The position numbers and the translations under genes are program-made. DNA of 64,000 nucleotides from NCBI GenBank assembly GCA_009844405.1, contig VYBO01000043.1:4927-68926 (forward strand). The letters are read 5' to 3'. Positions 28,466-64,000 of this stretch are shown here, piece after piece (the stretch's first letter is position 1; every line of letters starts with the position of its first letter). The DNA comes from Acidimicrobiaceae bacterium. GTDB lineage: Bacteria > Actinomycetota > Acidimicrobiia > Acidimicrobiales > Aldehydirespiratoraceae. The notes under the pieces are model-generated. The model saw only the letters and a list, made by a program, of their open reading frames with translations. It was not told the DNA's origin and made no database searches.

Positions 28466-31400
28466 TCACACGGTGAGGGCCTGCCAGCAGACGAGGTGGA
28501 CGTCGGCGGCAGTGATCTCAGGGAGGGGCTCGGGCACCGGCTGGGGCTGCAGGCCCTGCTCGTCGATCACCCGCAGCACGGCCTCGGCCTGCGCGGCGGG
28601 CTGCTCCGCCGGCCTCAGGGCGGCTCGCACCAGGCGGGTGACGCGCTCGGTGTAGGGCGCCTGAAGGCTGTCGATGGCTCGGGCCACGTCGTGCTGGGTC
28701 ATCGACGGCGGAGGATTGGAACGCACGATCTCGGCCGCCTGTCGCAGGGCGGCAGGTATGCGGGGCTCGAGGTTGGCCTTGTCGGCGAAGTGGTTCCAGC
28801 GCGCCACGATGTCGGCGCGGGCCGCCTCCCATGCCGTGAAAGCCGTCTCCAAGGTCGCGTCGTCGAACTGGCGCGGCGTCTCGAACCCGTCGGCGGGCCG
28901 GGCGAGCCACAGGCATTCGAGCGTGTCGCTGCTGACCCGGCCCGATGCGCCCACGAACCTGAACTGCGGGTTCGGGTCGTCGCCCACCCTGGCGCAGAAC
29001 ACATGCCCGGACTCCCCGCCGGGGTGTGCCGCCATCCCCGAGCCGGTGCCCCAGGGCAGGCGCTGCAAGACGCGATGCATGTCGGGATCGTCGACGGCGC
29101 GCCGGAGCTCGGCCCTGAACTCCTCGCCGGACTGTGCGCCGAGATCGGTGCCCCCGCGCTCGAAGATCGCGGCGTCCTCGGCGCGGAGGCGCTCGATCTC
29201 GGCCCGGGTCTGGCTGAAGCTGCGATCGAGGCTGCGCTCCTGGTCGGGTATGACCTCACCGACTCCGATGGAGGCCGCAGCTTGGGCAATCTTGCGGTTC
29301 AGCCGCTCCTCGAGGCCCAGAAGCTCGTCAAGGCGCCTGTCGGGAAACACGCAGCTGATGAACACTTCGCGGTGCCTGGAGCCGATCCGGTCGATGCGAC
29401 CGTGGCGCTGCACGAGCCGCATCGGGTTCCACGGCAGGTCGTAGTTGACGATGTGGCGGGCCTGTTGGAGGTTCACGCCCTCGGCAAGCACGTCGGTGGT
29501 GACGAGAATGTCATAGAGGTCGGGATGGTCGAGCCCCGGCGCCGCGGTGCGGGGGGCGAAGCTCAGCGCCGGATCACGGGCATGCCCCGAGCCGCCGGTG
29601 TGCCAGGCGATCCTGCCTCGGTAGGCGGACAGTCGCTCGTCTCGCACCACGGCATCCTCGAGGAAACCGACGATCCATTCCACCGTGTCGGCGAAGTAGG
29701 TGAACACCAGCACTTTGCGGCGGTCGCGGGTGTCGTCGGCGCCTATGCCGTCGCGCTCGGCCTGCTGGACGACGCCGGCCAACTCATCGGCCAGCGCGGC
29801 CAGAGTGGGATCGTCGGAGCGCGTCACCGTCTGTGCCTGCCGGGCGAAGTCGCTCAGCAGTCGGTGGTCGCGGCGGGCGTGGGCCACCATCTTGCCGACG
29901 TCGAATCCGGCGGCATCCTCCAGATCCTCGTGGTGGGCGTCGAGGTACTTGTCGATCTGTTCCAGGTCGTCGGAGTCGGTGCTCGCCCAGTCGGCTATCG
30001 CGCCGCCGGTGGCGACTCGGCCGTGGAGCTCGGCGAGTTCCGCGAACGCCAGGCAACCCTCGGCCATCCGCCGGCAGGTCTTCGCGAACGCCCACGGGGA
30101 AGACTCGAAGCGCTTGAGCAGGCCCGAACGCAGCAGCCCGGCGAGCTGCAGCTCATATGCGTCCGGGTTGTCGCGGCCGAGCCGGTAGTTGGAGGGCACG
30201 TAGCGCGCCAGGGTCAGCACCGCGTCGTCGGTGTCGGGGGCTGCGTCCGGGTTGAGCGCGGCCGCAAGCCGCTCGAAGAAGCCGGGCAGCACGCCGTCCA
30301 GGTCGTAGGTGACCTTGTGGACTCTCGGGGTCGGGAACACGATCTGGTGGTCCGCGCCGTCGATGCGCACCGTGTCGTTGGCGTAGTGCTTCTTGACGAA
30401 CGAGCGCGTGCGCCGGACGGCCACCGCGTCGAGCACGTCGAACAGGTGCTGGGGTGACAGGTCGTTGGGATCCTGGCGCATGGCCTCCGCGAAGTGGTCG
30501 CGCAGCGAGCGGATCCCGTCAGCGGCGAAGGTGCCGTCGTTGCGCAGGAAGTATCCGAGCAGGTGGTAGAGGTCCCAGAGGCTGTTGTTGACCGGGGTAG
30601 CGGTCAGCAGCACCAGCTTCTTGGGCGGGAGTCCGGCCAGCAGCCTCCGCAGCGACTCGGCCCTCTGGGTGGACGGGTTGCGCAGATTGTGGGCCTCGTC
30701 CACCACGATGAGGGCGTAGTTGTGAAGGTCGGGCCCGAGCGGGCGCGACGGCTGGCGCCCGGCCTCTTCGGCATGTTCGGCCCTCTCGCGGTTGAGTCTC
30801 GGATCGTCGGCGAGCGCGTCGAACGACACCAGGGTCATCGGCAGGTTGTGCTGCTGCCTGAAGGCCTCCCAAGGGCCGTCGCGCAGCGTCGCCGGGCAGA
30901 TGACCAGCACTCGCTGGCGGCGTTCGACGGCGGCTTCCTCGATGAGCTTGCCCGCGAAGTAGGTCTTGCCCAAGCCGACCTCGTCCGCGACGAGCACGCC
31001 GTTGTAGGCGTCGAGCAGCTTTCGGGCGCGCCACAGGCCGTCCTTCTGGAACGAGGTGAGCTCGATCGTCGACCGCGGCAGGGCGGCCTCGTCGTCTTCG
31101 GCCAGTTCGCGGCCGTAGCGCTCCCACAGCATCCGCAGATAGATGAGCTGCGGAGGGTGCGGCTCGAAGCGGGGAGCGAAGATCGAGGCGAGGTCGTAAT
31201 CGGCGGCGGAGCCCCAGAGCCCGTCGAACCATTGGGCCACAGCCGTCACCGTGTGGGGGGTGTAGTTGCCGAGGTTCAGCTCGAGGTTCGTCGAGAGGCC
31301 GGCGCGGGTGAAGTTCGACGACCCCGAGACGACTCCGTGGGAGTGGGTGGCCACCAAGAACGCCTTGCCGTGAAGGAACCTGTCCTCTAGGCGGCGCACC

Positions 31401-31816
31401 TGCACTCGGCCGCTGCGCAGCCAGTCCAGCAGCCGGCGCGCCGTGCTGTCGGCCTCGACGGTGAACCCGAGCAGGTCGCGGTCGGCGGCGAGCGCCTCCT
31501 CGTGGGAGTCGAGCAGGTCGCCGACTCGGCGCAGTTCGGCGCGGTGCGAGTTGGCCGGCTCGCGCTTGAGCGCACGTCGTCGGCTCTCCGGCGGCGCGGG
31601 CTCAGCGCCGAGCAGCAGCCGCACGCCTGACAGCTTGTCGAGCGAGTCTGCGAGCAGCGAGTAGCCACCGACGTTGAAGTAGGCGGTGGCGACGTCGAGC
31701 CGAACGTCGTGGGCGAACCCGTCGGCGGCGTGGCCGATGAACCCGTTGAGTGCATCGGCCACCGTCGCGCCGTGCTGGTTGACAGCCAACTCGGGCTTGG
31801 CCTCCCCGCTACTCAT
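28466..31816 (-). CDS. PLD-family (HKD) nuclease domain fused to SNF2-family helicase
   Basis: N-terminal HGKAFLV...GSSNFTRAG is a single HKD motif. It is followed by SNF2 motifs LVADEVGLGKT, VVDEAHNLRN and LLTATPVNNSL, and a helicase-C region, LAEGVNLQQARHIVNYDLPWNPMRLVQRHGRIDRIG. Confidence 0.85.
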   Translation of the reverse strand: MSSGEAKPELAVNQHGATVADALNGFIGHAADGFAHDVRLDVATAYFNVGGYSLLADSLDKLSGVRLLLGAEPAPPESRRRALKREPANSHRAELRRVGDLLDSHEEALAADRDLLGFTVEADSTARRLLDWLRSGRVQVRRLEDRFLHGKAFLVATHSHGVVSGSSNFTRAGLSTNLELNLGNYTPHTVTAVAQWFDGLWGSAADYDLASIFAPRFEPHPPQLIYLRMLWERYGRELAEDDEAALPRSTIELTSFQKDGLWRARKLLDAYNGVLVADEVGLGKTYFAGKLIEEAAVERRQRVLVICPATLRDGPWEAFRQQHNLPMTLVSFDALADDPRLNRERAEHAEEAGRQPSRPLGPDLHNYALIVVDEAHNLRNPSTQRAESLRRLLAGLPPKKLVLLTATPVNNSLWDLYHLLGYFLRNDGTFAADGIRSLRDHFAEAMRQDPNDLSPQHLFDVLDAVAVRRTRSFVKKHYANDTVRIDGADHQIVFPTPRVHKVTYDLDGVLPGFFERLAAALNPDAAPDTDDAVLTLARYVPSNYRLGRDNPDAYELQLAGLLRSGLLKRFESSPWAFAKTCRRMAEGCLAFAELAELHGRVATGGAIADWASTDSDDLEQIDKYLDAHHEDLEDAAGFDVGKMVAHARRDHRLLSDFARQAQTVTRSDDPTLAALADELAGVVQQAERDGIGADDTRDRRKVLVFTYFADTVEWIVGFLEDAVVRDERLSAYRGRIAWHTGGSGHARDPALSFAPRTAAPGLDHPDLYDILVTTDVLAEGVNLQQARHIVNYDLPWNPMRLVQRHGRIDRIGSRHREVFISCVFPDRRLDELLGLEERLNRKIAQAAASIGVGEVIPDQERSLDRSFSQTRAEIERLRAEDAAIFERGGTDLGAQSGEEFRAELRRAVDDPDMHRVLQRLPWGTGSGMAAHPGGESGHVFCARVGDDPNPQFRFVGASGRVSSDTLECLWLARPADGFETPRQFDDATLETAFTAWEAARADIVARWNHFADKANLEPRIPAALRQAAEIVRSNPPPSMTQHDVARAIDSLQAPYTERVTRLVRAALRPAEQPAAQAEAVLRVIDEQGLQPQPVPEPLPEITAADVHLVCWQALTV

Positions 31817-32498
31817 CGGGCTCGATCACCTGCCAGCGCTGCTCTCTGAGCACACCGGCAGCTATGTCCGGGGACCGCCGCACCGCCGCTCGAAGCTGGC
31901 CGTCTCGAAATCGCTGCCGCGACTCGTTCAGAGCCTTCTCCCACCCAGGCCGCGGCTCCACGAGCCGCTCAAGGATGCAGAACTCGATCAAGTCCTCCAG
32001 ACAAGGGCGGTATCGCCGCCCACCGACGGGGAAGTGCAAGTCATCAGGCTTGTGCTTGGGGCGTCCACATCGCTCCAGCATGTCCTGCACCGCGACTGAC
32101 TCGCCATGGAGATGAAAGTGAGCCTCGGGGTACTCATTCGGAGGATCCCGGGTGTAGTCATAGGTCAAGATCGGCTCTGAATTGGTGGCGTGCATGAGCT
32201 TATAGCTGCTCTTGGTCGTGGTGAGAAACCGCTGCGATTCGTCGAGCGCGAGCGTGTGCAACAGGCGCAACGCCAACAGGGCCGGGGCCTGAGATAGGGT
32301 CAGCGCTACTGGGTCACCGCGTGGCTTCAGTCGGGAAATCTGGTTCCCAATCGCAGCGCGACCGCTTGCCTCCATCAGCACGGACAGGCAGAGACCGTGC
32401 GTGAGGGTGCGATTCAGCGCCTTAGTGAGTTCGCCAGCAAACTCCCGAGCTTGGCGATCGAGGTTAGGCTGGCGACGGCTCGGCGAAGGTCGAGACAA
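31809..32498 (-). CDS. Hypothetical protein, 229 aa, translationally coupled to the helicase
   Basis: The stop overlaps the helicase ATG by 8 nt (GATGAGTAG). No recognisable domain. The start is uncertain (TTG at 32498 or internal). Confidence 0.5.
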   Translation of the reverse strand: MSRPSPSRRQPNLDRQAREFAGELTKALNRTLTHGLCLSVLMEASGRAAIGNQISRLKPRGDPVALTLSQAPALLALRLLHTLALDESQRFLTTTKSSYKLMHATNSEPILTYDYTRDPPNEYPEAHFHLHGESVAVQDMLERCGRPKHKPDDLHFPVGGRRYRPCLEDLIEFCILERLVEPRPGWEKALNESRQRFRDGQLRAAVRRSPDIAAGVLREQRWQVIEPDE

Positions 32499-32673
32499 CG
32501 AACCAGGCCTCGCGGGCCGTCTCGTTCGTAAATCGTCCGGCTCGAGCCTGATCTTGCAGTGCCTCCCAGCTGTAGCCAGCTTCAGCCAACGCGTTGCTGA
32601 TCAGTTCCTCGATCCCCGCCTCGTCGAGGACTTCGACCTCAATGTCGGCGTAGGGATCTTCGTTGGCGCTCAT
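32464..32673 (-). CDS. Small acidic protein, 69 aa, unknown function
   Basis: ATG at 32673 is preceded by a strong GAGGAGGAG Shine-Dalgarno sequence. The protein MSANEDPYADIEVEVLDEAGIEELISNALAEAGY... is highly acidic. The track start at 32748 is less likely. Confidence 0.5.
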   Translation of the reverse strand: MSANEDPYADIEVEVLDEAGIEELISNALAEAGYSWEALQDQARAGRFTNETAREAWFVVSTFAEPSPA

Positions 32674-32935: not shown

Positions 32936-33778
32936 CTAACGGGAGATGGCAGCGGACCAGCGGCGAAAATGAACGAGGACCGCGGCATGGTGCTCGGCGT
33001 AGCGGTCGGGGCGCCTGGCATCGAAGGTGCTGTACAGCACGGCCAGATCGTCCTCGTCGAGGCCATAGAGATGCGCCACGCACGCATCGAGCTCGGCAAT
33101 CAGATCGTCCTTGGCCTTGCGATCGTTGACGGAGCCGACCGGCACTCCTACATTCCTGGCCCAGTCGGCGAAGCGATCGTCCACCGCAGCCAGCCGCCCC
33201 GCAATCTCGACGACGCGGTCGCGAACTGGGTGGCCCTCGCCCGGGTCGGGCACCGGCAGCGCATTGAGGACATGGAAGTTCAGGCTCATCTCGACGGTCC
33301 GCCGGGCACACCAGTCCATAATCATCCAAGCCAACAGCCCAAGCACGAACGCCTCGTCGCGACAACCACCACGGGTTTGGAGGAGGTATGGACCCTTGTT
33401 GGTGATGACGACCCGAGGCGGGATGAGCGCCGCGACGATGGTACGGGTGTTGGTCGGGTTAGTCACGTCTCGGAAGGCGATGCGCGGATTGCGACACGGC
33501 AGGGTCGCTGGGTCAAGGAGAACCGGCTGGCGTAGTTCAGCGAAGGCTGACCGGACAGTCCGGCTTTGCGACTGGCGCTTCTGCTGAAGGTTAGCCGTGA
33601 TGCTCACAGCATCAGCGCTGTCATAGAAGTCGCCGGTGTCGGGCTGCCAGAGGTTGAAGCTCTTGCCCGCGTAGACGGGCCAGACATCGCCAGTCCTCGG
33701 CTCGGACGGTTTGCTGTCATCGCTGCTGGGCCTCCCTGAGTTGCCGGTAGATCGCGAGGACCTCGTCCCGGCGGTCAT
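32936..33778 (-). CDS. Methyltransferase C-terminal cassette, paralog 2 (possibly non-functional: no start adjacent to conserved WPVY)
   Basis: ...VWPVYAGKSFNLWQPDTG...RIAFRDVTNPTNTRTIVAALIPP...LDACVAHLYGLDEDD is about 60-65% identical to the ORF at 33717..34478. The nearest in-frame ATGs are at 33778 and 33862, both overlapping the paralog-1 3' end. Confidence 0.5.
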   Translation of the reverse strand: MTAGTRSSRSTGNSGRPSSDDSKPSEPRTGDVWPVYAGKSFNLWQPDTGDFYDSADAVSITANLQQKRQSQSRTVRSAFAELRQPVLLDPATLPCRNPRIAFRDVTNPTNTRTIVAALIPPRVVITNKGPYLLQTRGGCRDEAFVLGLLAWMIMDWCARRTVEMSLNFHVLNALPVPDPGEGHPVRDRVVEIAGRLAAVDDRFADWARNVGVPVGSVNDRKAKDDLIAELDACVAHLYGLDEDDLAVLYSTFDARRPDRYAEHHAAVLVHFRRWSAAISR

Positions 33779-34478
33779 CCCACTGCCCCGGACGCCCGAA
33801 GGTGTCGTACACGACGGCGATGTCGTCCTCGTCGAGGCCGTAGAGGTATGCCACGCACGCATCGAGCTCGCACAGGGCCTCTACCCCCCCCCCGGTCGAT
33901 GTCGGGCCAGCTACTGCGCCCACGGGCACACCGACCTCGGCGGCCCAGCCCTCCAATCGCTCGTCGCGCGCGGCGAGGCCTCCCGCCAGTTCGATGATCC
34001 GGTCACGCACCGAATGGCCCTCTCCCGGATCAGGTATTGCCAGAAGATTCAGTTGATGAAAGTTGAGGTGGAGCTCGAGCGTCCGACGCGCTTGCCAATC
34101 GCAAGGCATCGAGCACAGCACTCCCAGCACGTATGCCTCATCCCTAGCGGATCCCGCTAGTCGAAGCAGGTAGGGGGCCTGGTTCGCCACGACGCGATCC
34201 GGCGGGATGAGAGCGGCCACGATCGTGCGGGTGTTGGTCGGGTTGGTCACGTCGCGGAACGCGATCCGGGCTTGGCGGCAGGGTAGCGTTGCTGAGTCAC
34301 GCAGTACCGTCTCGGGCAACTCCGCGAACGCCGACGATTTCGTACCGCTTTGCGATTGGCGCCTGTGCTGAAGGTGCTCTGTGATGGTCGCGGCGTCGAC
34401 GCTGTCGTAGTAGACGCCCGTGTCGGGCTCCCACAGGTTGAACGACGTGCCCTTGTACACCGGCCAAACCCGGCTCAT
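33717..34478 (-). CDS. Methyltransferase C-terminal cassette, paralog 1 (split off or translationally coupled)
   Basis: MSRVWPVYKGTSFNLWEPDTG...RIAFRDVTNPTNTRTIVAALIPP...LDACVAYLYGLDEDD. The ATG at 34478 sits in an ATGA overlap with the third-frame stop of the upstream methyltransferase reading. It contains a G10 tract. Confidence 0.6.
   Translation of the reverse strand: MSRVWPVYKGTSFNLWEPDTGVYYDSVDAATITEHLQHRRQSQSGTKSSAFAELPETVLRDSATLPCRQARIAFRDVTNPTNTRTIVAALIPPDRVVANQAPYLLRLAGSARDEAYVLGVLCSMPCDWQARRTLELHLNFHQLNLLAIPDPGEGHSVRDRIIELAGGLAARDERLEGWAAEVGVPVGAVAGPTSTGGGVEALCELDACVAYLYGLDEDDIAVVYDTFGRPGQWDDRRDEVLAIYRQLREAQQR
33884..33893 (-). repeat. Homopolymer C10 (G10 in gene sense) inside cassette paralog 1
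   Basis: cta + 10 c + ggtcgat, read directly. It encodes the GGG of ...PTSTGGGVEAL. Confidence 0.98.
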
Positions 34479-34503: not shown

Positions 34504-34715
34504 CCGCGCCGTCGTCGTTCATGAACCTGTCCCGGTCGCCGGTGGCGTCGAGTTCGCGGACCGGGCGGAAGCGCCATCGTCGTTCACGAAGAGGCTCCGG
34601 TCGTGGGTCGCGTGGAGCTCTGCGACTGCTCGGAAGCGCCACGTCCGTCGTCCCGGAAGAACCGGTGGCGGTCGGTCGTTGCGTTGAGATCGCCTTGGAC
34701 CGGCCGGAATCTCCA
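34504..34715 (-). repeat. Three diverged tandem units (74, 65, 73 nt) each encoding the WRFR..EL.AT.DR..F..DDG motif in a different reading frame
   Basis: Units lie at 34715-34642, 34641-34577 and 34576-34504 in gene sense. Manual three-frame translation is given in the findings. Confidence 0.85.
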
Positions 34716-34724
34716 TCTCCGACG

Positions 34725-34735
34725 CCCCCCCCCCC
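34725..34735 (-). repeat. Homopolymer C11 (G11 in gene sense) inside the methyltransferase
   Basis: gacg + 11 c + gcagg, read directly from the sequence. Confidence 0.98.
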
Positions 34736-35206
34736 GCAGGCGCGTCGCGCTCATCGAGGTCGCTGCCGTCGAATCTTGGATGCTGCTTCATCTTGCGCCA
34801 GACTCGGAACGCGGCCCGGTTCGGCACCTGCGGGAAGGCGGCCGACTTCGACCAACTTCGGAACTCGGACACCGGCACCAGCTCCGGGCCAGCCTCAAGC
34901 ACTTCCCGATAGTGGACCTGCGAGGATGCTGGACCGGGATAGATGGCTACAAGCGGCTCCGAGGCTTCCGCTTCAAGGCCACCCCCTGGGATTGGTTCGG
35001 GCGTTGGCAGTGCAGATCGCGATGAGGGCAGTTGTGTACCGTCCGTCCAAGCCGTCGAAGGCCCATTGCCCTGTGTTGAGGCAGGTAGCGGCCGAGATGA
35101 CCGCGCGTGAGTGAGCAGCGCCACTGTGTAAGCGTTGTGGACTTCCTCGAAGACCCACCCCTTCTGATTGATGAGCGTGAGCACCGACACCTTGGGCTTT
35201 GCTTGC

Positions 35207-35230
35207 AGAGAGAGAGAGAGAGAGAGAGAG
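35207..35230 (-). repeat. (AG)12 on plus strand = (CT)12 in gene sense, inside the methyltransferase
   Basis: Read directly: gcttgc(ag)x12 atttattcgg. It is translated as SLSLSLSL in the track ORF. Confidence 0.98.
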
Positions 35231-38200
35231 ATTTATTCGGTGCCGCGACATCCGTGACCCGCAGCCGCCATTCTGACATGCCTTCGGAATTCAAGGCCGT
35301 TCGGGGGACAACCAGCCCAAGATGACCTCCGACCCGGATGAGTTCAAGGTTCGCCCACATGAAGGCTTGGTACAGATCTGTCCGGCCCGAGCCGAGACCA
35401 GGAAACGCGACTCTGAGAACAGCCCTCGTCTTCTCGGCCACCTCCGAATCATGTAGAAAAGCTTCCTCAAGGTCAGGCCTCTCCAGGCGCGTCCTAGTGA
35501 TGACTCGTCGCATGGCACCGACCGACAAGCCCCGCATACCCGGCTGGTGCATACCCCACCAGACATGTTCTTGGACGACCGCCTGCTCCCATGGTGGGTT
35601 GCCTATCAGGCAGTCGAAGCCGCTGAGGTCGCCTCGTCTGAACACCTCGGGGAAGCGGGCCGGGAAATGGACGGGGTTCAAGTCCGCTACCGCTCGCCGC
35701 ACGGCATCCGTGGCCGCCAGCGCCTCGAAGACGGCCGGGTCGTAGTGCTCGGGGAGGTCGCAGGCGCCGGCGCGCTGGGCCGCGACCACGTCGAAGATCG
35801 CCCGAGCGGGCGCGACTGCAGCGAAGGCCTCGCGGTGAGCCTCGCGGGCTTGGTCGATCTCGGCCTTGGTGGCGTCGGAGGTGCGGGCCAGCCGGCTCAG
35901 CGCCTCGCCGGCCTCGTCGAGCATCGCGACCAGCTGGTTGCGGAACAGGCTCGGCGCCGACGGGTCGGCGTCGGGCTCGAAGACACGCAGCACGTCGTCG
36001 AGCGTGCCAACGCCGGTGAGGCTGTTGCCCTCGATCAGGTTGTGGTCGAGGAAGCTCAGCGGCAGGCCAGGCACGAACGTGTGGACCCAGATCGACAGTC
36101 GGGCAAGCTCCACTGCGACCCGGTTGAGGTCCACGCCGTAGATGCAGTATCGGGCCACTTGGCGGCGCAGAAGCGAACTGGTCTCGATCTCGTCCTCGCC
36201 GCCGAGAGCCCCCGGGACCGCGACGGCGGCAGTCCTCAGGCGCCGCAGGGTTGCATGCACCCCGGCACCGGCAGAGGGGTTGCGGCTCAGCCAACCCGAC
36301 AGCCTCCGCTCGATACGGTCCACTGCCGCCACCAGGAAGTGCCCCGAACCCATCGCGATGTCGGCGCAGCGGAAGTCGAAGAAGGCCGTATCGACCCCGG
36401 CGACGTCGCCCGCGGTCGCCAGTGCGTCGAGACGGGCGAGATGCTCCTCAAGTGCGGGCTCCAGCGCATGGTCGAGCAGATGCTCCACGGCGAAGGGCTT
36501 CGTGAAGTAGCTGCCGGTGCTCTTGCGCACGCCCGAGCGGTTGTGGAAATAGACGCTCCCTGCGGCCACCTCCACCTCATCGTCGGCCTCCGCGGGAACG
36601 TAGGTGGGCTCACCCTTGAGGAGCTTGACGGTGAGATCCTGCTCGGCCAGCGACAGCTGCGACTCCAGCAGGCCCTCGTAGATCGTGCCGAACGCGCGGA
36701 CCGACAACGACCGGAAGTCCACCGGACCCTCGCCCTCGGGGCTGAGGTCGATCAGCATGGCCGACAGCGCGGGGCCGAGCTCGGCGTCGGTCAGCGGCGC
36801 CATCGCCTCGATGGCCGCGCCCGAGCCGCTCACATCCGGGTCGCGGGAGAACAGCCCGCCGTCGTATGCGGGCAGCGCCCAAGCAATATTGCCGGTGTCT
36901 ATGGCGCTCCAGAGTTGCTTGATGTCGGCCCACATCGAGGTGGCCGCCGCGTCGAAGACCACCGATCCGCGGCGGCGGTCCTCGGCGAGGCGTCTCGCCA
37001 GCCGCGTCAGCGAGTGGTCGGCGTAGCGGGCGTTCGTGCTGTAGGGGAAGCGGTCCATGGCCTCGGCGTAGGCGACGAACAGCAGCCGGAACAGGATCAC
37101 CATCACCTGCTCGTAGGCAGCCCTCAGGTCCTCCGGACCCGGCGCATCGGTGACACGCCTGGCCACCGCGTCGGCCAGTGCGGGCACGGTCTCGGCGTAC
37201 ACCCGCTCTCGCAGCCGGACCGCCAGGTCGGCGGCGAACCGGTCCGACGCCTCGAGCGCCTCCTCGATCTTGCCGCCGGCGTCGAGCGCCTCCGCGGAGA
37301 ACAGCAGCCTCAGGTATCCGGCGTGCTGCTCGCTCAGCAGCGCCAGGTTGGCCTCCACGTAGGTCTCGGCCCGGCCCTTGCGGCCCACGCCGGTGTCGGG
37401 GCGGGCCGCATACAGCCGGATCTCGCTGCCGCGGGTCAACAGCACCCAGTCAGCGCCGTGCGCATCCGCATGCGAGAGAGCCAGGGACACGGGGGTGATC
37501 CCGTCGAAGCGGGCAGCCGGAGCGTCGAAGGGCTCGTCTTCGGAGCAGAACACGGCCGCGGCGCGGCTGTGGCCGTTCACCTTCAGCAGATGGACGTGGT
37601 TGGCATGCTGCTCCAGCCGGAAGCCGAGCCCCTCCGCCAGTCGCCTGCCCCGCAGGCCCAGCAGGGACCGGCCCGACCGCACCGACGCGGCCCAGTCGGA
37701 CCGCTGCGGCAGACCCGAACGGAGTTCCTGGGTGGCGAGCAGGCCCACGTTGCGCAGGCCGGCCTCGAGCCTGGCGTGCTCCGGCGCATCGAGTCCGACC
37801 AGCGCCTTCTGGAGGACGCGCACGGCCGCGTGCAGATCGGGCTCGCCCAAGGCGCAGTCGGCGACCCGCTCGACCGGAGCGGCATCGAGGTCCCACACCA
37901 CTGCCGGGCTGTCCCCGACGGGGCCACACACGGCCACCTGAACCGAGTCCGACGAGGTCGTCGCATCCGCAGGCGCCGGATAGCCCACGATCATCAGAAC
38001 CGGGCTGGCTCGTCCGGCGCGGCGCTTTAGGTAGCCGTCGCGCATCTGGGACGCCTGGGGCCTGCGGGAAGCGGACGCCAGAACCACCTCAAGGCCGTTG
38101 GGCACGACCCGGCCGCGGCAACGCTGAAAGAACGCTCCGCACGGCGCCAACGCTTCAGGGAAGCCTTGCGGCCGGGACCAGCGGTCGGGGTCTCGCTCTG

Positions 38201-38420
38201 GCAGGAAGCGGTCAGCCCAGCTCACGCCCTCGCCCGGAGGTTCGTTTGCACTCCCGGCCCGGCGGGAGCGCATGGGAACGCCGTCCCGCCGTGCCGCTCA
38301 TGGCGACGCACGCTACTGAATCGCGAGCGGCCTTGCCAGGGTGGGTCAGTGGGGCGTCGGGGACGCCCAGCCGACGCCAGCGCGGCTGACCCCACGGCTC
38401 GAGTGCTAGCATTGTGCGAC

Positions 38421-38642
38421 ATGGCTGTCCTCTACCTCCGCAACGTCTCCGACGATCTGATGCGCCGGCTGAAGCTGCTCGCGTCCCGAGAGCAGACGTC
38501 GGTCTCGGCCGCCGCGCTCAGAGAACTCGATGAGGCGACCCGCTGGGTCGACGTCCCCGATCTCTTCGAGAACCTCCCGGACGTGCAGGTTCCCACCGCG
38601 GAGATCCTCGCCGCGCTCGACGAGGGGCGCTCGACGAGGTGA
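38421..38642 (+). CDS. vapB: VapB/FitA-like ribbon-helix-helix antitoxin
   Basis: MAVLYLRNVSDDLMRRLKLLASREQTSVSAAALRELDEA is typical of Arc/FitA-type antitoxins. The stop overlaps the start of the PIN gene. ATG at 38421 lies inside track ORF 38166..38642. Confidence 0.75.
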   Translation: MAVLYLRNVSDDLMRRLKLLASREQTSVSAAALRELDEATRWVDVPDLFENLPDVQVPTAEILAALDEGRSTR

Positions 38643-39040
38643 TCGTGGTCGATGCCTCGGCCGTGGTCGAAGCCCTGATCCACGGCGGCGAAGCGCGGCA
38701 GCGGCTGACGACTGAGCGAGTTGCGGCGCCCCACCTCGTCGACGCCGAGGTCATGCACGCTCTTCGCAGGCTGACTGCACGGGGCGCCTTGGACGACCTG
38801 TCCGCCCACCGCGCGGTGCGACGGTGGCGCGGCGCGCCCGTCCGACGGTTCGCGATGCACGCCCTGGTCGATCGAGTCTGGGCCATGCGGCACAACCTCT
38901 CCGCCTACGACGCCTGCTATGTCGCGCTTGCCGAGGCGCTGGACCGCCCCCTGCTGACCGCCGACCACCGGCTCGCGGCGGCGCCCACGCTGAAGTGTCC
39001 CGTCGTGCTGCTGGCAGGCAGAGAAAGTCACGATCAATAG
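38639..39040 (+). CDS. vapC: PIN-domain toxin VapC
   Basis: MIVVDASAVVEAL... provides the first acidic residue, with later DAEV and YDACYVALAEAL...LLTADHRL providing the other PIN acidic residues. Confidence 0.85.
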   Translation: MIVVDASAVVEALIHGGEARQRLTTERVAAPHLVDAEVMHALRRLTARGALDDLSAHRAVRRWRGAPVRRFAMHALVDRVWAMRHNLSAYDACYVALAEALDRPLLTADHRLAAAPTLKCPVVLLAGRESHDQ

Positions 39041-42641: not shown

Positions 42642-43928
42642 ATGAGTTCAATGACTAGGACGGGAACTGCGCGCCGGCGAGACCGGGGCCGCACCGGACG
42701 CGCCAGGCTGATCCTGCTCGGCGGGATCGTCGGCATCGGCAGCCTGCTGGCCGCGGCCTGCGGCGACGACGAGGCCGACGAACCAGCGGCGGCGCCTGAG
42801 ACGACCCAGGCTCCCGCACCCGCCGAGGAGGCCGCACCGGCCGAGGAGGCTGCACCCGCCGAGGAGGCCGCACCCGCCGAGGAGGCCGCACCGGCCGGAC
42901 CGGCAGGGCACTGCGCCGCCGGCGAGACCGACGGCGACCTGACCTTCTACAACTGGGCCGAGTACATCGACGAGGAACTTCTCGCCGCCTTCGAGGCCGA
43001 GACCGGCATCAATGTGGAGTACTCGACCTACGAGTCCAACGAGGAGATGCTCACCAAGGTCGAGTCGGGCGCAGCCATCTACGACTTGGTGGTGCCGTCG
43101 GACTACATGGTCGACACGATGCGCCGAGACGACCTGCTGCTCGAGCTGAACTTCGACGCCATACCCAACGCGGCCAACATCGGCCCCGAGTTCGCCAACC
43201 CGCCGTTCGACCCCGAGCACAAGTACAGCGTCGCCTACCAGTGGGGCACCACGGGCATCGGCATGTCCTACGAGGTGCTCGAACTTCTGGGCGGCGAGTC
43301 CACCTGGGCGGTGATCTTCGATCCGGCCACCGCCGCCCTGGTGCCGGGCAGCATCTCGATGCTCGACGACGCCCCCGAGACGGTGTCGGCCGCGCTCAAG
43401 TACCTCGGCTACAGCATCGAGGACGTGATCAACAACCGGAACGAGGACGCGGTGCGCGAGGCCGGCGAACTGCTGAGGGCCACCAACGACCGGCTGCTCA
43501 AGTACGACTCGGTCACCTTCGGCGACGACCTGGTCAACGGAGAGGTGGACGTGGCCCACGGCTGGAGCGGCGGGTTCTTCCTGTCGTTCTTCGAGGCCGA
43601 CGCCTACGAGGACTACGTCTACACCATCCCGGCCGAGGGCGGGGTCCGCTGGGTCGACAACATGGCGATCCCCCACAACGCCGACAACATCTGCTCGGCG
43701 CACGCCATGATCAACTTCCTGACCGACGCCGAGAACGGCGCCACGCTGACCAACTGGACCTACTACGGCAGCCCGAACGCGGCCTCCACGCCCTACATCC
43801 TGGACGAGATCCTGGAGGACCCGGGCATCTACCCGCCGCCCGAGGTCGACGCACGGCTCGAGCTGATCCCCCACGCGGGCGACATGGCCCTGCTGATCCA
43901 GGACATGCACAGCCAGGCCAAGAGCTAG
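42642..43928 (+). CDS. potD: Spermidine/putrescine-binding periplasmic lipoprotein (PotD/PotF family)
   Basis: Lipobox LLAAAC, a tandem AEEAAP linker, then a PotD-like body (LTFYNWAEYID...YDLVVPSDYMV...YQWGTTGI). Confidence 0.85.
   Translation: MSSMTRTGTARRRDRGRTGRARLILLGGIVGIGSLLAAACGDDEADEPAAAPETTQAPAPAEEAAPAEEAAPAEEAAPAEEAAPAGPAGHCAAGETDGDLTFYNWAEYIDEELLAAFEAETGINVEYSTYESNEEMLTKVESGAAIYDLVVPSDYMVDTMRRDDLLLELNFDAIPNAANIGPEFANPPFDPEHKYSVAYQWGTTGIGMSYEVLELLGGESTWAVIFDPATAALVPGSISMLDDAPETVSAALKYLGYSIEDVINNRNEDAVREAGELLRATNDRLLKYDSVTFGDDLVNGEVDVAHGWSGGFFLSFFEADAYEDYVYTIPAEGGVRWVDNMAIPHNADNICSAHAMINFLTDAENGATLTNWTYYGSPNAASTPYILDEILEDPGIYPPPEVDARLELIPHAGDMALLIQDMHSQAKS
42822..42893 (+). repeat. 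4 x 18-bp tandem repeat encoding (AEEAAP)4
   Basis: gccgaggaggc[ct]gcacc[gc] occurs four times, read directly from the sequence. Confidence 0.95.
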
Positions 43929-46531: not shown

Positions 46532-46786
46532 ATGGCCGGAGCGGTGGTGATGGTGATCGTGCTGGTGGTGGTGTTCCCGGTGGTGGTGCTGGTCGGCTGC
46601 GGGATCCTGGCCGCGGCACTGGGCAGCTTCCTGAAGGTCGACTCCGACGCGGCCAACCGGGGCGACGACGGCCCCAACGAGTACCTGGAGCTGGCCCGCA
46701 AGGAAGCCGAGACCGGCTACCCGCAGCGGCCCGAGACGCCGTCGCTGCGTTCTAGGCTCGAGTCGAGGATCCGGTCGGCCAGGTAG
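46532..46786 (+). CDS. Possible small membrane protein (84 aa)
   Basis: It has one strongly hydrophobic N-terminal helix and a charged tail. It overlaps a convergent gene end by 35 nt. No homology is recognised. Confidence 0.3.
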   Translation: MAGAVVMVIVLVVVFPVVVLVGCGILAAALGSFLKVDSDAANRGDDGPNEYLELARKEAETGYPQRPETPSLRSRLESRIRSAR

Positions 46787-63712: not shown

Positions 63713-64000
63713 CTACCCAAGAGGTGGCGGGTCGGGCGTGTGGTAGTCGTGCTTAGCTCCATCGAAGTCGGACCCGGTGAGGACTGTTCTAGAGAGATCG
63801 GCACCGGTGAGGTCGGCACCGCGGAAGTCCGCCCCATAGAGGTCAGCACCAGCGAGATCAGCACCAGCGAGGTTCGCCCCGGTAAGGCGCGCACCGGTCA
63901 GGTCGGCGCCAGCGAGACTCGCCCCGGCTAGATTCGCGTCGCAGAGATCGGCGTCGCAGAGGTCAGCGTCGGTGAGGATGGCACCGGAAAGTTGCGAGCC
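63713..64000 (-). CDS. Pentapeptide-repeat protein, 5' end outside window
   Basis: Not in the ORF track because no start lies in the window. Manual translation of the minus strand from 64000 gives [95 protein letters not shown], with stop TAG at 63715-63713. Confidence 0.8.

Follow-up and report, generated by a model that had tools for sequence, protein, structure and literature searches.

A putative multi-repeat contingency locus around an Eco57I-type methyltransferase gene in uncultured Acidimicrobiia

Genes and repeat tracts of the locus

We analyzed 64,000 nucleotides of an Acidimicrobiaceae bacterium (GCA_009844405.1, contig VYBO01000043.1, positions 4,927 to 68,926; the window in the following). 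Its reverse strand carries a gene for a predicted Eco57I-type N6-adenine methyltransferase, which is followed by three copies of a short motif, two tandem recognition modules and a gene for a PLD nuclease-SNF2 helicase. Three simple sequence repeats (SSR1 to SSR3) lie within the open reading frames (ORFs) of this locus (Table 1). In the sequenced allele, SSR1 is out of frame (gene OFF), SSR2 is in the state that leads into motif copy b and SSR3 is in frame.

Table 1. Features of the methyltransferase locus in the window (all on the reverse strand; repeats are given in gene sense)
Feature	Position	Strand	Description	Basis or remark
Methyltransferase ORF, OFF allele	34947..38273	-	1108 codons from the first ATG	out-of-frame tail past SSR1
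GNPPW	35589..35603	-	catalytic motif IV of N6-adenine methyltransferases	direct translation
SSR1	35207..35231	-	T(CT)12, 25 nt; putative ON/OFF frameshifting tract	Tandem Repeats Finder (TRF) and direct reading
Continuation frame after SSR1	34519..35206	-		pN/pS, AlphaFold models
SSR2	34725..34735	-	G11; putative frame selector preceding the three motif copies	run scan
Motif copy a	34644..34715	-	WRFRPVQGDLNATTDRHRFFRDDG; frame-specific peptide GASEQSQSSTRPTTGASS	read with SSR2 = G10; frame stop 34584-34586
Motif copy b	34573..34641	-	WRFRAVAELHATHDRSLFVNDDG; frame-specific peptide ASARSANSTPPATGTGS	read with the sequenced G11; frame stop 34519-34521
Motif copy c	34505..34576	-	WRFRPVRELDATGDRDRFMNDDGA; frame-specific peptide AAASSAETER	read with G12 or G9; stop TGA 34475-34477
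Recognition module 1 (CTD1)	33717..34478	-	253 residues, separate ORF	PADLOC PDLC03620 positions 1132-1373, E 9e-47
SSR3	33884..33893	-	G10 in module 1, in frame as sequenced	run scan
Recognition module 2 (CTD2)	32936..33778	-	tandem paralogue; alternative ATG 33862	PDLC03620 positions 1132-1371, E 5e-48
PLD (HKD) nuclease-SNF2 helicase	28466..31816	-		Pfam PLDc_2, SNF2-rel_dom, Helicase_C

The methyltransferase ORF matches Pfam Eco57I (E 7e-14) and the PADLOC profile REase_MTase_IIG (PDLC03620) with an E-value of 2.5e-156, where residues 130-1006 correspond to profile positions 101-984. All NCBIfam matches of the locus proteins were below threshold, and a sequence search of the PDB with the whole conceptual protein gave no match. 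The N-terminal 130 residues of the methylase are not matched by family profiles; a PLD nuclease is instead encoded by the partner gene.

An earlier note, made from the sequence of the window alone, had described a perfect (AG)12 run, T(CT)12 in gene sense, within this coding sequence and had called it unusual. Direct reading and TRF (period 2, 12.5 copies, 100% matches) confirm the tract. The pattern did not occur in 100 dinucleotide-preserving shuffles of the window and is the sole dinucleotide run of at least 5 units within the 64 kb. It lies about 123 codons after the NPPW motif, not about 240 as the note had given. Around the tract the ORF reads ...APNKSLSLSLSLCKQSPRC..., and it terminates at 34947. 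Its conserved continuation QAKPKVSVLTLINQKGWVFEEV, also given as QAKPKVSVLTLINQKGWVF..., is found in the frame of ORF 34519..35190, which matches PDLC03620 at profile positions 1059-1093. Translation bore out both readings, and the OFF state of the gene, as the note had them. Its arithmetic is also right: the frames on the two sides of the tract connect if it is (CT)11 or (CT)14. One unit fewer thus fuses the frames as claimed, but what results is not a single full-length protein: translation stops behind motif copy b, at 34519, after 1250 residues. For a (CT)11 tract at SSR1, the predicted lengths are 1228 residues with G10 at SSR2 (state a), 1250 with G11 (state b) and 1265 with G12 (state c).

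In the continuation, a hairpin containing LINQKGWVF and a disordered insert precede the first half of the recognition domain, after which G11 leads into motif copy b and the stop. The insert is a clade-specific low-complexity segment of about 45 residues (RSSRPLPASTQGNGPSTAWTDGTQLPSSRSALPTPEPIPGGG, window about 35100-34975, reverse strand, 3' of the beta-hairpin). It is not present in most homologues and was modelled as disordered in a relative (pLDDT <50).

A search with the joined sequence retrieved 140 proteins, through which the distant loci L001-L007 were fetched. Homologues with 35-43% identity span 99% of the joined sequence as a single chain, including both the upstream and the downstream frames. 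The profile PDLC03620 maps the window pieces colinearly, and the second tandem C-terminal module is present as well. Therefore, the downstream frames are part of the same ancestral protein, as the note had assumed.

For one single-chain relative (P0001), the part from just past SSR1 to the C-terminus was modelled with AlphaFold (pLDDT 89.7, pTM 0.87). Residues 1-27 form a beta-hairpin and residues 43-73, the clade-specific insert, are disordered. The SSR2 site corresponds to a loop (about 141-147), and the motif to an ordered strand-turn (150-171) which is followed by the module. Foldseek matches of this model were CamA, M.BseCI, MmeI and BrxX/PglX (E 1e-5 to 1e-4, TM about 0.4). They span the end of the gamma-class methyltransferase domain and the DNA-recognition domain, so that SSR1 interrupts the catalytic domain, and the motif and module together form the recognition domain. 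SSR1 is located in a loop ahead of the last beta-hairpin of the catalytic domain and SSR2 in a loop of the recognition domain.

Three out-of-phase motif copies and two recognition modules

SSR2 and SSR3 are the only mononucleotide runs of at least 8 nt in the 64-kb window. These two G tracts, the triplicated 65/74-nt unit behind SSR2 and the duplicated C-terminal module go beyond the features recorded in the earlier note. The unit encodes a 24-residue segment. From copy a to copy b the distance is 74 nt and from b to c it is 65 nt, which places one copy in each reading frame. Translation leaving SSR2 in any of the three frames meets a single copy in the correct register. Frame a terminates at a TGA made by the TTC-GTG-AAC codons (Phe-Val/Met-Asn) of copy b, and frame b likewise at a TGA within the Phe-Val/Met-Asn codons of copy c. 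The TGA of frame c overlaps the ATG of module 1 (ATGA). An ATGA or GTGA overlap of stop and start is conserved, with a GGAG-like site upstream.

Ratios of nonsynonymous to synonymous polymorphism (pN/pS) differ strongly between frames. Read in their proper frames, copies a, b and c gave 0.14, 0.22 and 0.19, respectively. The two remaining frames gave 1.5-2.6 for copy a and 1.3-3.3 for copy b, and ranged from 1.1 to 3.3 over all copies. Among 17-18 distinct sequences, variable sites at the first, second and third codon positions numbered 10/4/18 for copy a, 7/3/16 for copy b and 7/3/19 for copy c, and a count restricted to six lineages gave the same picture. The paralogue-specific residues QGDLNAT, AELHATH and RELDATG are kept across genera. 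The spacing from a to b is 74 or 68 nt and hence changes by multiples of 3 only. Every frame is open from SSR2 to its own copy in 18 of 18 lineages. These patterns are direct evidence, at the level of the sequence, that all three frames after SSR2 are used as protein.

The three-copy layout occurs in all 18-19 lineages of the clade and also in the distant locus L007 (43% protein identity, 60% GC). At the SSR2 site, the linker is shorter than 20 residues in 106 of the 108 single-chain homologues, so the SSR2 arrangement appears to be an innovation of one sub-clade. All three states are found among the assemblies, also inside one species-level clade: state a in L012-15, L029, L002, L003, L019, L027 and L023, state b in the window, L009, L018, L020, L022, L026 and L028, and state c in L001, L021/L005, L025, L032, L033 and L007. 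The number of units varies too, since L019 (2463-2740) has 4 and L025 (1850-2190) has 5 copies of the 65-nt unit, the extra ones being of type c.

The two recognition modules share 62% protein identity and are direct repeats (family D1/D2) with a spacing of 775-784 nt. Members of this clade encode the C-terminal half of the recognition domain as an ORF of its own with a separate start, and fusions occur only in L006, L007 and L023; in L007 and L023 it is copy c that is fused to the module in frame. SSR3 is G13 and in frame in L012, and it is out of frame in L001 and L022. Compared with the strains of the L013-15 group, the identity is 81% for module 1 and 73-86% for module 2. Between L012 and L013 (6535-7362 in both), module 1 is 100% identical and the middle of module 2 differs, being module-1-like in L012; the mosaic suggests that the tandem modules have undergone gene conversion.

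Two possible joins were discarded. A single chain through motif copy a and module 1 was dropped, since the motif is the last part of the ON products (L012, P0005, P0031) and the modules have ORFs of their own. A shift at SSR3 that hands translation over to the ATG at 33862, by way of a TAG right after the tract, and so to module 2 was rejected, since the TAG/ATG arrangement is not conserved in L001, L017 and L019.

Tract lengths in related genomes

The exact module 1 protein, together with helicases at least 90% identical to that of the window, was found on many contigs of sponge-associated metagenome-assembled genomes (MAGs) named 'Acidimicrobiaceae bacterium', in the same genomic context. 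Syntenic contigs with helicases at this level of identity are referred to as sister strains. Three contigs (L008, L010, L011) match the window with 100% identity. L009 (GCA_009840875.1) shows no mismatch over 11,772 nt and a single gap, which corresponds to (TC)13 instead of (TC)12 at SSR1. In the sister strains SSR1 is (TC)8 (L013-15), (TC)10 (L029), (TC)14 (L032) or (TC)22 (L012), SSR2 is G10, G11 or G15, and SSR3 is G10 or G13. The (TC)22 allele of L012 is in frame and its ORF continues through the tract (1158 codons). In L032 the kilobase from SSR1 to SSR2 is nearly identical to that of the window, with indels only at these two repeats, and the SSR2 states are c and b, respectively. Tract length is therefore not uniform, and the differences in length as well as the in-frame allele support the slipped-strand phase variation that the earlier note had proposed. 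Between genomes, the tracts are unstable. The two outcomes that the note had named as refuting phase variation, a uniform tract length and a downstream frame foreign to the protein, thus did not occur.

Long repeats are concentrated in the locus. Over 15 loci, 41 were counted in 69.5 kb of methylase and module genes and one in 158.9 kb of flanking sequence. This only long flank repeat is a G12 run (L001:2903-2914) in a gene for a 1896-residue Calx-beta/fn3 surface protein, which may be a second contingency gene of these symbionts. Further tandem repeats detected by TRF in the window are located at 42814-42897 (18-nt unit, 4.7 copies, 92% matches), 46543-46593 (GGT-rich) and 63794-63971 (15-nt units, 7.6 copies). 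All of these remaining units are multiples of 3 and hence cause no frameshift.

The repeats could also be sequencing or assembly errors at low-complexity tracts, behind which the true gene is intact and invariant. Homopolymer lengths are error-prone, and short-read contigs often end in the locus: L033 within SSR1 (1-24), L011 within the 65-nt repeats (position 1), and L030 (1-50) and L031 (1-45) in runs of C45-50. The C45-50 runs look like artefacts, and the other breaks fit heterogeneous repeats. However, the tracts are present in independent short-read MAGs, in complete chromosomes (OZ..., NZ_OZ... records) and in the 4.1-Mb contig L012, their lengths of 8-26 units are far beyond error, and the three-frame layout and the separate module ORFs occur in all of these assemblies. 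An artefact is thus extremely unlikely.

Conservation of the repeat sites and selection

A 27-nt clade pattern matched 11 species-representative genomes, all of them Acidimicrobiia, including Candidatus Poriferisocius (L018), Candidatus Poriferisodalis and Candidatus Aldehydirespirator. A metagenome scan with the same pattern returned one short contig, and a metagenome scan for the strain-specific tract and its flank gave no match. Frameshifting repeats are kept at the SSR1 and SSR2 sites in about 20 lineages of Acidimicrobiia from several genera, mostly sponge-associated. At the SSR1 site these are (TC)9-16, (CT)9 or G8-G14. The SSR2 site shows G10-15, C12, C21, (AG)26, (AG)5, (GA)6-16, (TC)15, (CT)10 and (CA)13, and also longer units, namely (AGGC)19, (ACCG)19, (AGGCCGAC)7, (CAGGA)n, (GCCAA)n and (GTCC)n(GACC)n. 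G10-G14 was found at the SSR3 site in other genera. Unit lengths are 1, 2, 4, 5 or 8 nt, none of which is divisible by 3. A fixed position combined with turnover of the repeat type argues for selection for mutability at these sites. In addition, a fourth repeat site, which is not present in the window, precedes NPPW by about 1.57 kb in L018 (G16, 1258-1273) and L020 (G14, 2027-2040) and thus lies within the N-terminal portion of the methylase gene.

For the domain after SSR1, pN/pS amounts to 0.22-0.29 in the coding frame, compared to 1.6-2.8 in the two alternative frames, and the same is true among lineages of which only OFF alleles were found. Five lineages (L012, L002, L018, L023, L028) have an intact gene with SSR1 in frame, and in 12 others SSR1 is out of frame, close to the 1:2 ratio expected of a freely drifting tract length. 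L003 is in frame at SSR1 but has no NPPW region and was not counted as ON. Both the conservation of the sites and selection in all three frames can be read from these alignments.

The same data bear on the possibility that the gene is a decaying pseudogene with several frameshifts, in which the repeats are neutral expansions in dead sequence. The break at SSR1, the pieces in three frames, the predominance of OFF assemblies and the deletion of the catalytic region in protein P0031 would be in line with it. Decay would not be expected to leave purifying selection on the downstream domain, even in OFF-only lineages, and on the three motif copies, each in the frame that encodes it, an architecture kept in about 20 lineages of several genera, and intact ON alleles (L012, L002, L018, L023, L028). 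Furthermore, the frame breaks fall exactly at the repeats and are not scattered. We consider decay very improbable.

Slippage could also take place in transcription or translation and not in the DNA, so that each cell would make all three C-terminal isoforms from any tract length, and the copies would serve the parallel production of isoforms instead of a heritable switch. Polymerases slip on long G or C homopolymers, and such runs are present at the sites (G10-G16, C12, C21). Protein-level selection in all three frames would be explained equally well in this way. Many lineages, however, have di-, tetra-, penta- or octanucleotide repeats, which are classic for DNA slippage and poor substrates for transcriptional slippage, and length differences between near-identical strains are directly seen in the DNA. 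The two kinds of slippage do not exclude each other, and we judge slippage in expression to be an unlikely explanation of the layout.

A further alternative is that SSR2 is a hotspot which cannot be removed, and that the out-of-phase copies merely keep the enzyme working in any frame, with equivalent states. It accounts for the fact that each frame yields one intact copy of the segment. A harmful repeat is easily lost by point mutation, yet the site repeatedly gained new frameshifting types with up to 26 units. The paralogue-specific residues are kept over long divergence, and coupling or fusion to the module is confined to frame c. SSR1 and SSR3 have no comparable copies. A purely buffering role thus seems rather improbable.

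Partner gene, neighborhood and variable cassette

The PLD-SNF2 protein resembles PADLOC DrmD and 'HKD+Snf2', and its gene is located downstream of the methylase in every locus that is long enough (L001, L005-L007, L008-L015, L029, L032). The note had mentioned phasevarions, a reading in terms of gene regulation; this conserved partner points to a function in defence. VapBC and an ABC transporter border one side of the locus and PGM the other. The VapBC-like pair (window 38421-39040, forward strand), a FitA-like ribbon-helix-helix protein followed by a PIN domain, is the immediate upstream neighbor of the methylase and is kept in the syntenic strains. The slot between module 2 and the helicase (window 31809-32673, reverse strand) contains ORFs of 69 and 188 residues without a family match. 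In L012-15, L029, L001, L032 and L006, the slot is occupied by RelB/YafQ, by a PIN toxin with a small ORF (presumed antitoxin) or by a RAMA/DUF4357 protein.

Comparison of the window with L013-15 revealed 98.4% identity for the upstream part of the methylase and 94.8% for the helicase, and only 85% for the cassette between about 35533 and 32988. This cassette has 82-85% identity in strains that share 95-99% identity in the flanking genes. Its boundary is sharp, about 55 nt past the NPPW codons, and coincides with a drop in GC content to 58-61% (profile 34900-35650). This suggests that the C-terminal cassette has been swapped by recombination, and its low identity is what a diversifying recognition region would be expected to show.

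Proposed mechanism

Taken together, the locus is probably a multi-repeat contingency locus, in which a two-component defence system similar to restriction-modification (RM), an Eco57I-type methyltransferase with PLD-SNF2, is rewired by slipped-strand mispairing at three repeats. The (CT)n tract of SSR1 would act as the ON/OFF switch of the methyltransferase. The frame leaving SSR2 would select motif copy a, b or c and thereby give methylases which differ in how, or with which separate module, their recognition domain is completed. A shift at SSR3 would remove module 1 in favour of module 2. Jointly, the three repeats would vary the activity and probably the target specificity or the subunit make-up. 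By analogy with known systems, PLD-SNF2 would depend on the methylase for its targets, so that the OFF state would be non-toxic and would only lower the barrier to foreign DNA.

A more specific version, which we put forward tentatively as a possibility, is that SSR2 serves as a frame decoder. It would pick among three paralogues of a recognition segment and decide on the recruitment of the modules and, in combination with SSR1 and SSR3, a clone would cycle through several specificities and an OFF state. If true, specificity would be switched combinatorially by frameshift alone, without recombinases.

Several points weigh against the proposed contingency locus. Switching within one population is inferred from assemblies, and the sole difference on the same background, 12 versus 13 units in the window and L009, could be an effect of the assembly consensus. 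Neither Pfam nor NCBIfam detected a nuclease family in the 1108-residue ORF. The role of PLD-SNF2 as a restriction component which, as in Type I and Type III systems, would find its targets through the methylase, is suggested by gene linkage. The states a and b of SSR2 might be merely tolerated truncations, and in a model of the state-b fragment of the window without the module the first 140 residues are confident and the motif reaches a pLDDT of 66-81 only. In L019 and L025, the last, module-coupled copy cannot be reached by any frame from SSR2, which the simple model leaves unexplained. Finally, P0031 (L003/L004) is in frame at SSR1 and lacks about 260 residues including the NPPW region; this allele is probably a dead or chimeric copy.

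Comparison with known systems

As in phase-variable genes, perfect repeats with units that are not multiples of 3 (T(CT)12, G11, G10) lie within the ORFs. As in contingency genes, their lengths differ between near-identical genomes, and in-frame and out-of-frame alleles occur with the coding potential kept. The match to PDLC03620, the gamma-class motifs and the C-terminal recognition domain correspond to Type IIG enzymes. However, methylase and recognition domain, which form one chain in Type IIG, are split over several ORFs in this clade.

DISARM class 1 (DrmMI, DrmD, DrmA/DrmB, with or without the PLD protein DrmC) is similar in its components, since the methylase matches DrmMI (E 6e-59), the partner matches DrmD (E 6e-46) and a PLD domain is present. 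Yet the locus has no DrmA or DrmB/DUF1998 genes, and the NCBIfam DrmD score of 186 bits is below the cut-off of 610. It further differs in that PLD is fused to the helicase and that the best methylase profile is REase_MTase_IIG, not DrmMI.

Phase variation of pglX in Streptomyces coelicolor arises from a G tract, to our knowledge the only tract of this gene. Like the locus described here, pglX of the Pgl/BREX-2 system (PMC4365076) encodes a defence methylase of a high-GC actinobacterium. Both belong to one broad superfamily, and BrxX/PglX is among the structural matches. By its NCBIfam scores (19.9 and 15.4 bits compared to cut-offs of 400 and 500), the methylase is no orthologue of PglX, and no PglZ, BrxC or PglW was found near the locus.

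The tract of Cj0031 in Campylobacter jejuni is a poly-G run. Cj0031 resembles the locus as a large Eco57I/COG1002-like methylase with its own recognition domain and a repeat switch within the gene, and its switching alters phage restriction and methylation (PMC4889913). Unlike the locus, it is one polypeptide with a single ON/OFF tract, whereas here three tracts, split modules, a PLD-SNF2 partner and a three-frame C-terminus are combined in an Acidimicrobiia symbiont of 68-70% GC. Besides this Type IIG gene, Type III mod genes (PMC5909438; PMC3498834) and Type I systems (PMC7383803) are established cases of ON/OFF switching driven by repeats. The Type III mod gene MmyCI of Mycoplasma mycoides contains (AG)12 (PMC3498834) and is similar in that a short repeat within the methylase ORF gives ON/OFF switching by slipped-strand mispairing. 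In Type III systems the restriction subunit needs the methylase, so the OFF state is tolerated, and the same is proposed for the locus. Type III mod genes differ by their methylase family and subunits and by having one repeat, and segment copies in alternative frames are not among the features described in the consulted surveys.

Type I hsdS switching, through tracts in NgoAV (PMC9577141) or recombined duplicates (PMC7394358), likewise varies recognition and involves duplicated, diverged modules beside a methylase. In contrast to hsdS shufflons, the locus would use frameshift and not inversion, and its recognition domain is of the TaqI/CamA/MmeI kind, not HsdS. Long inverted repeats were not found between the modules, which are direct repeats, and there is no recombinase in the window locus; an integrase is located upstream in L001 only.

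For Helicobacter canadensis, switching of C-termini through late repeats was proposed (PMC2823697). As at the locus, a late repeat alters the C-terminus and does not abolish the protein. The alternative frames of H. canadensis are short unrelated tails, whereas those of the locus are conserved, selected copies of one segment, each with a built-in stop for the preceding frame. Word searches of open-access full texts returned no relevant paper on phase variation in these symbionts and no description of out-of-phase duplicated segments behind a repeat; both may be described elsewhere.

The locus is thus a known kind of switch in a new lineage, with a three-frame C-terminal layout that is absent from the papers searched. 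Repeat-driven phase variation of RM methylases has so far been worked out mainly in low-GC, host-adapted pathogens. The locus would extend it to several genera of uncultured Acidimicrobiia with about 70% GC, which derive mostly from sponges, where phage pressure is presumed to be high. In the annotation of these MAGs, 'broken' methylase genes would accordingly be read as switches and not as pseudogenes. The layout offers a testable system for how much phenotypic variety one repeat encodes.

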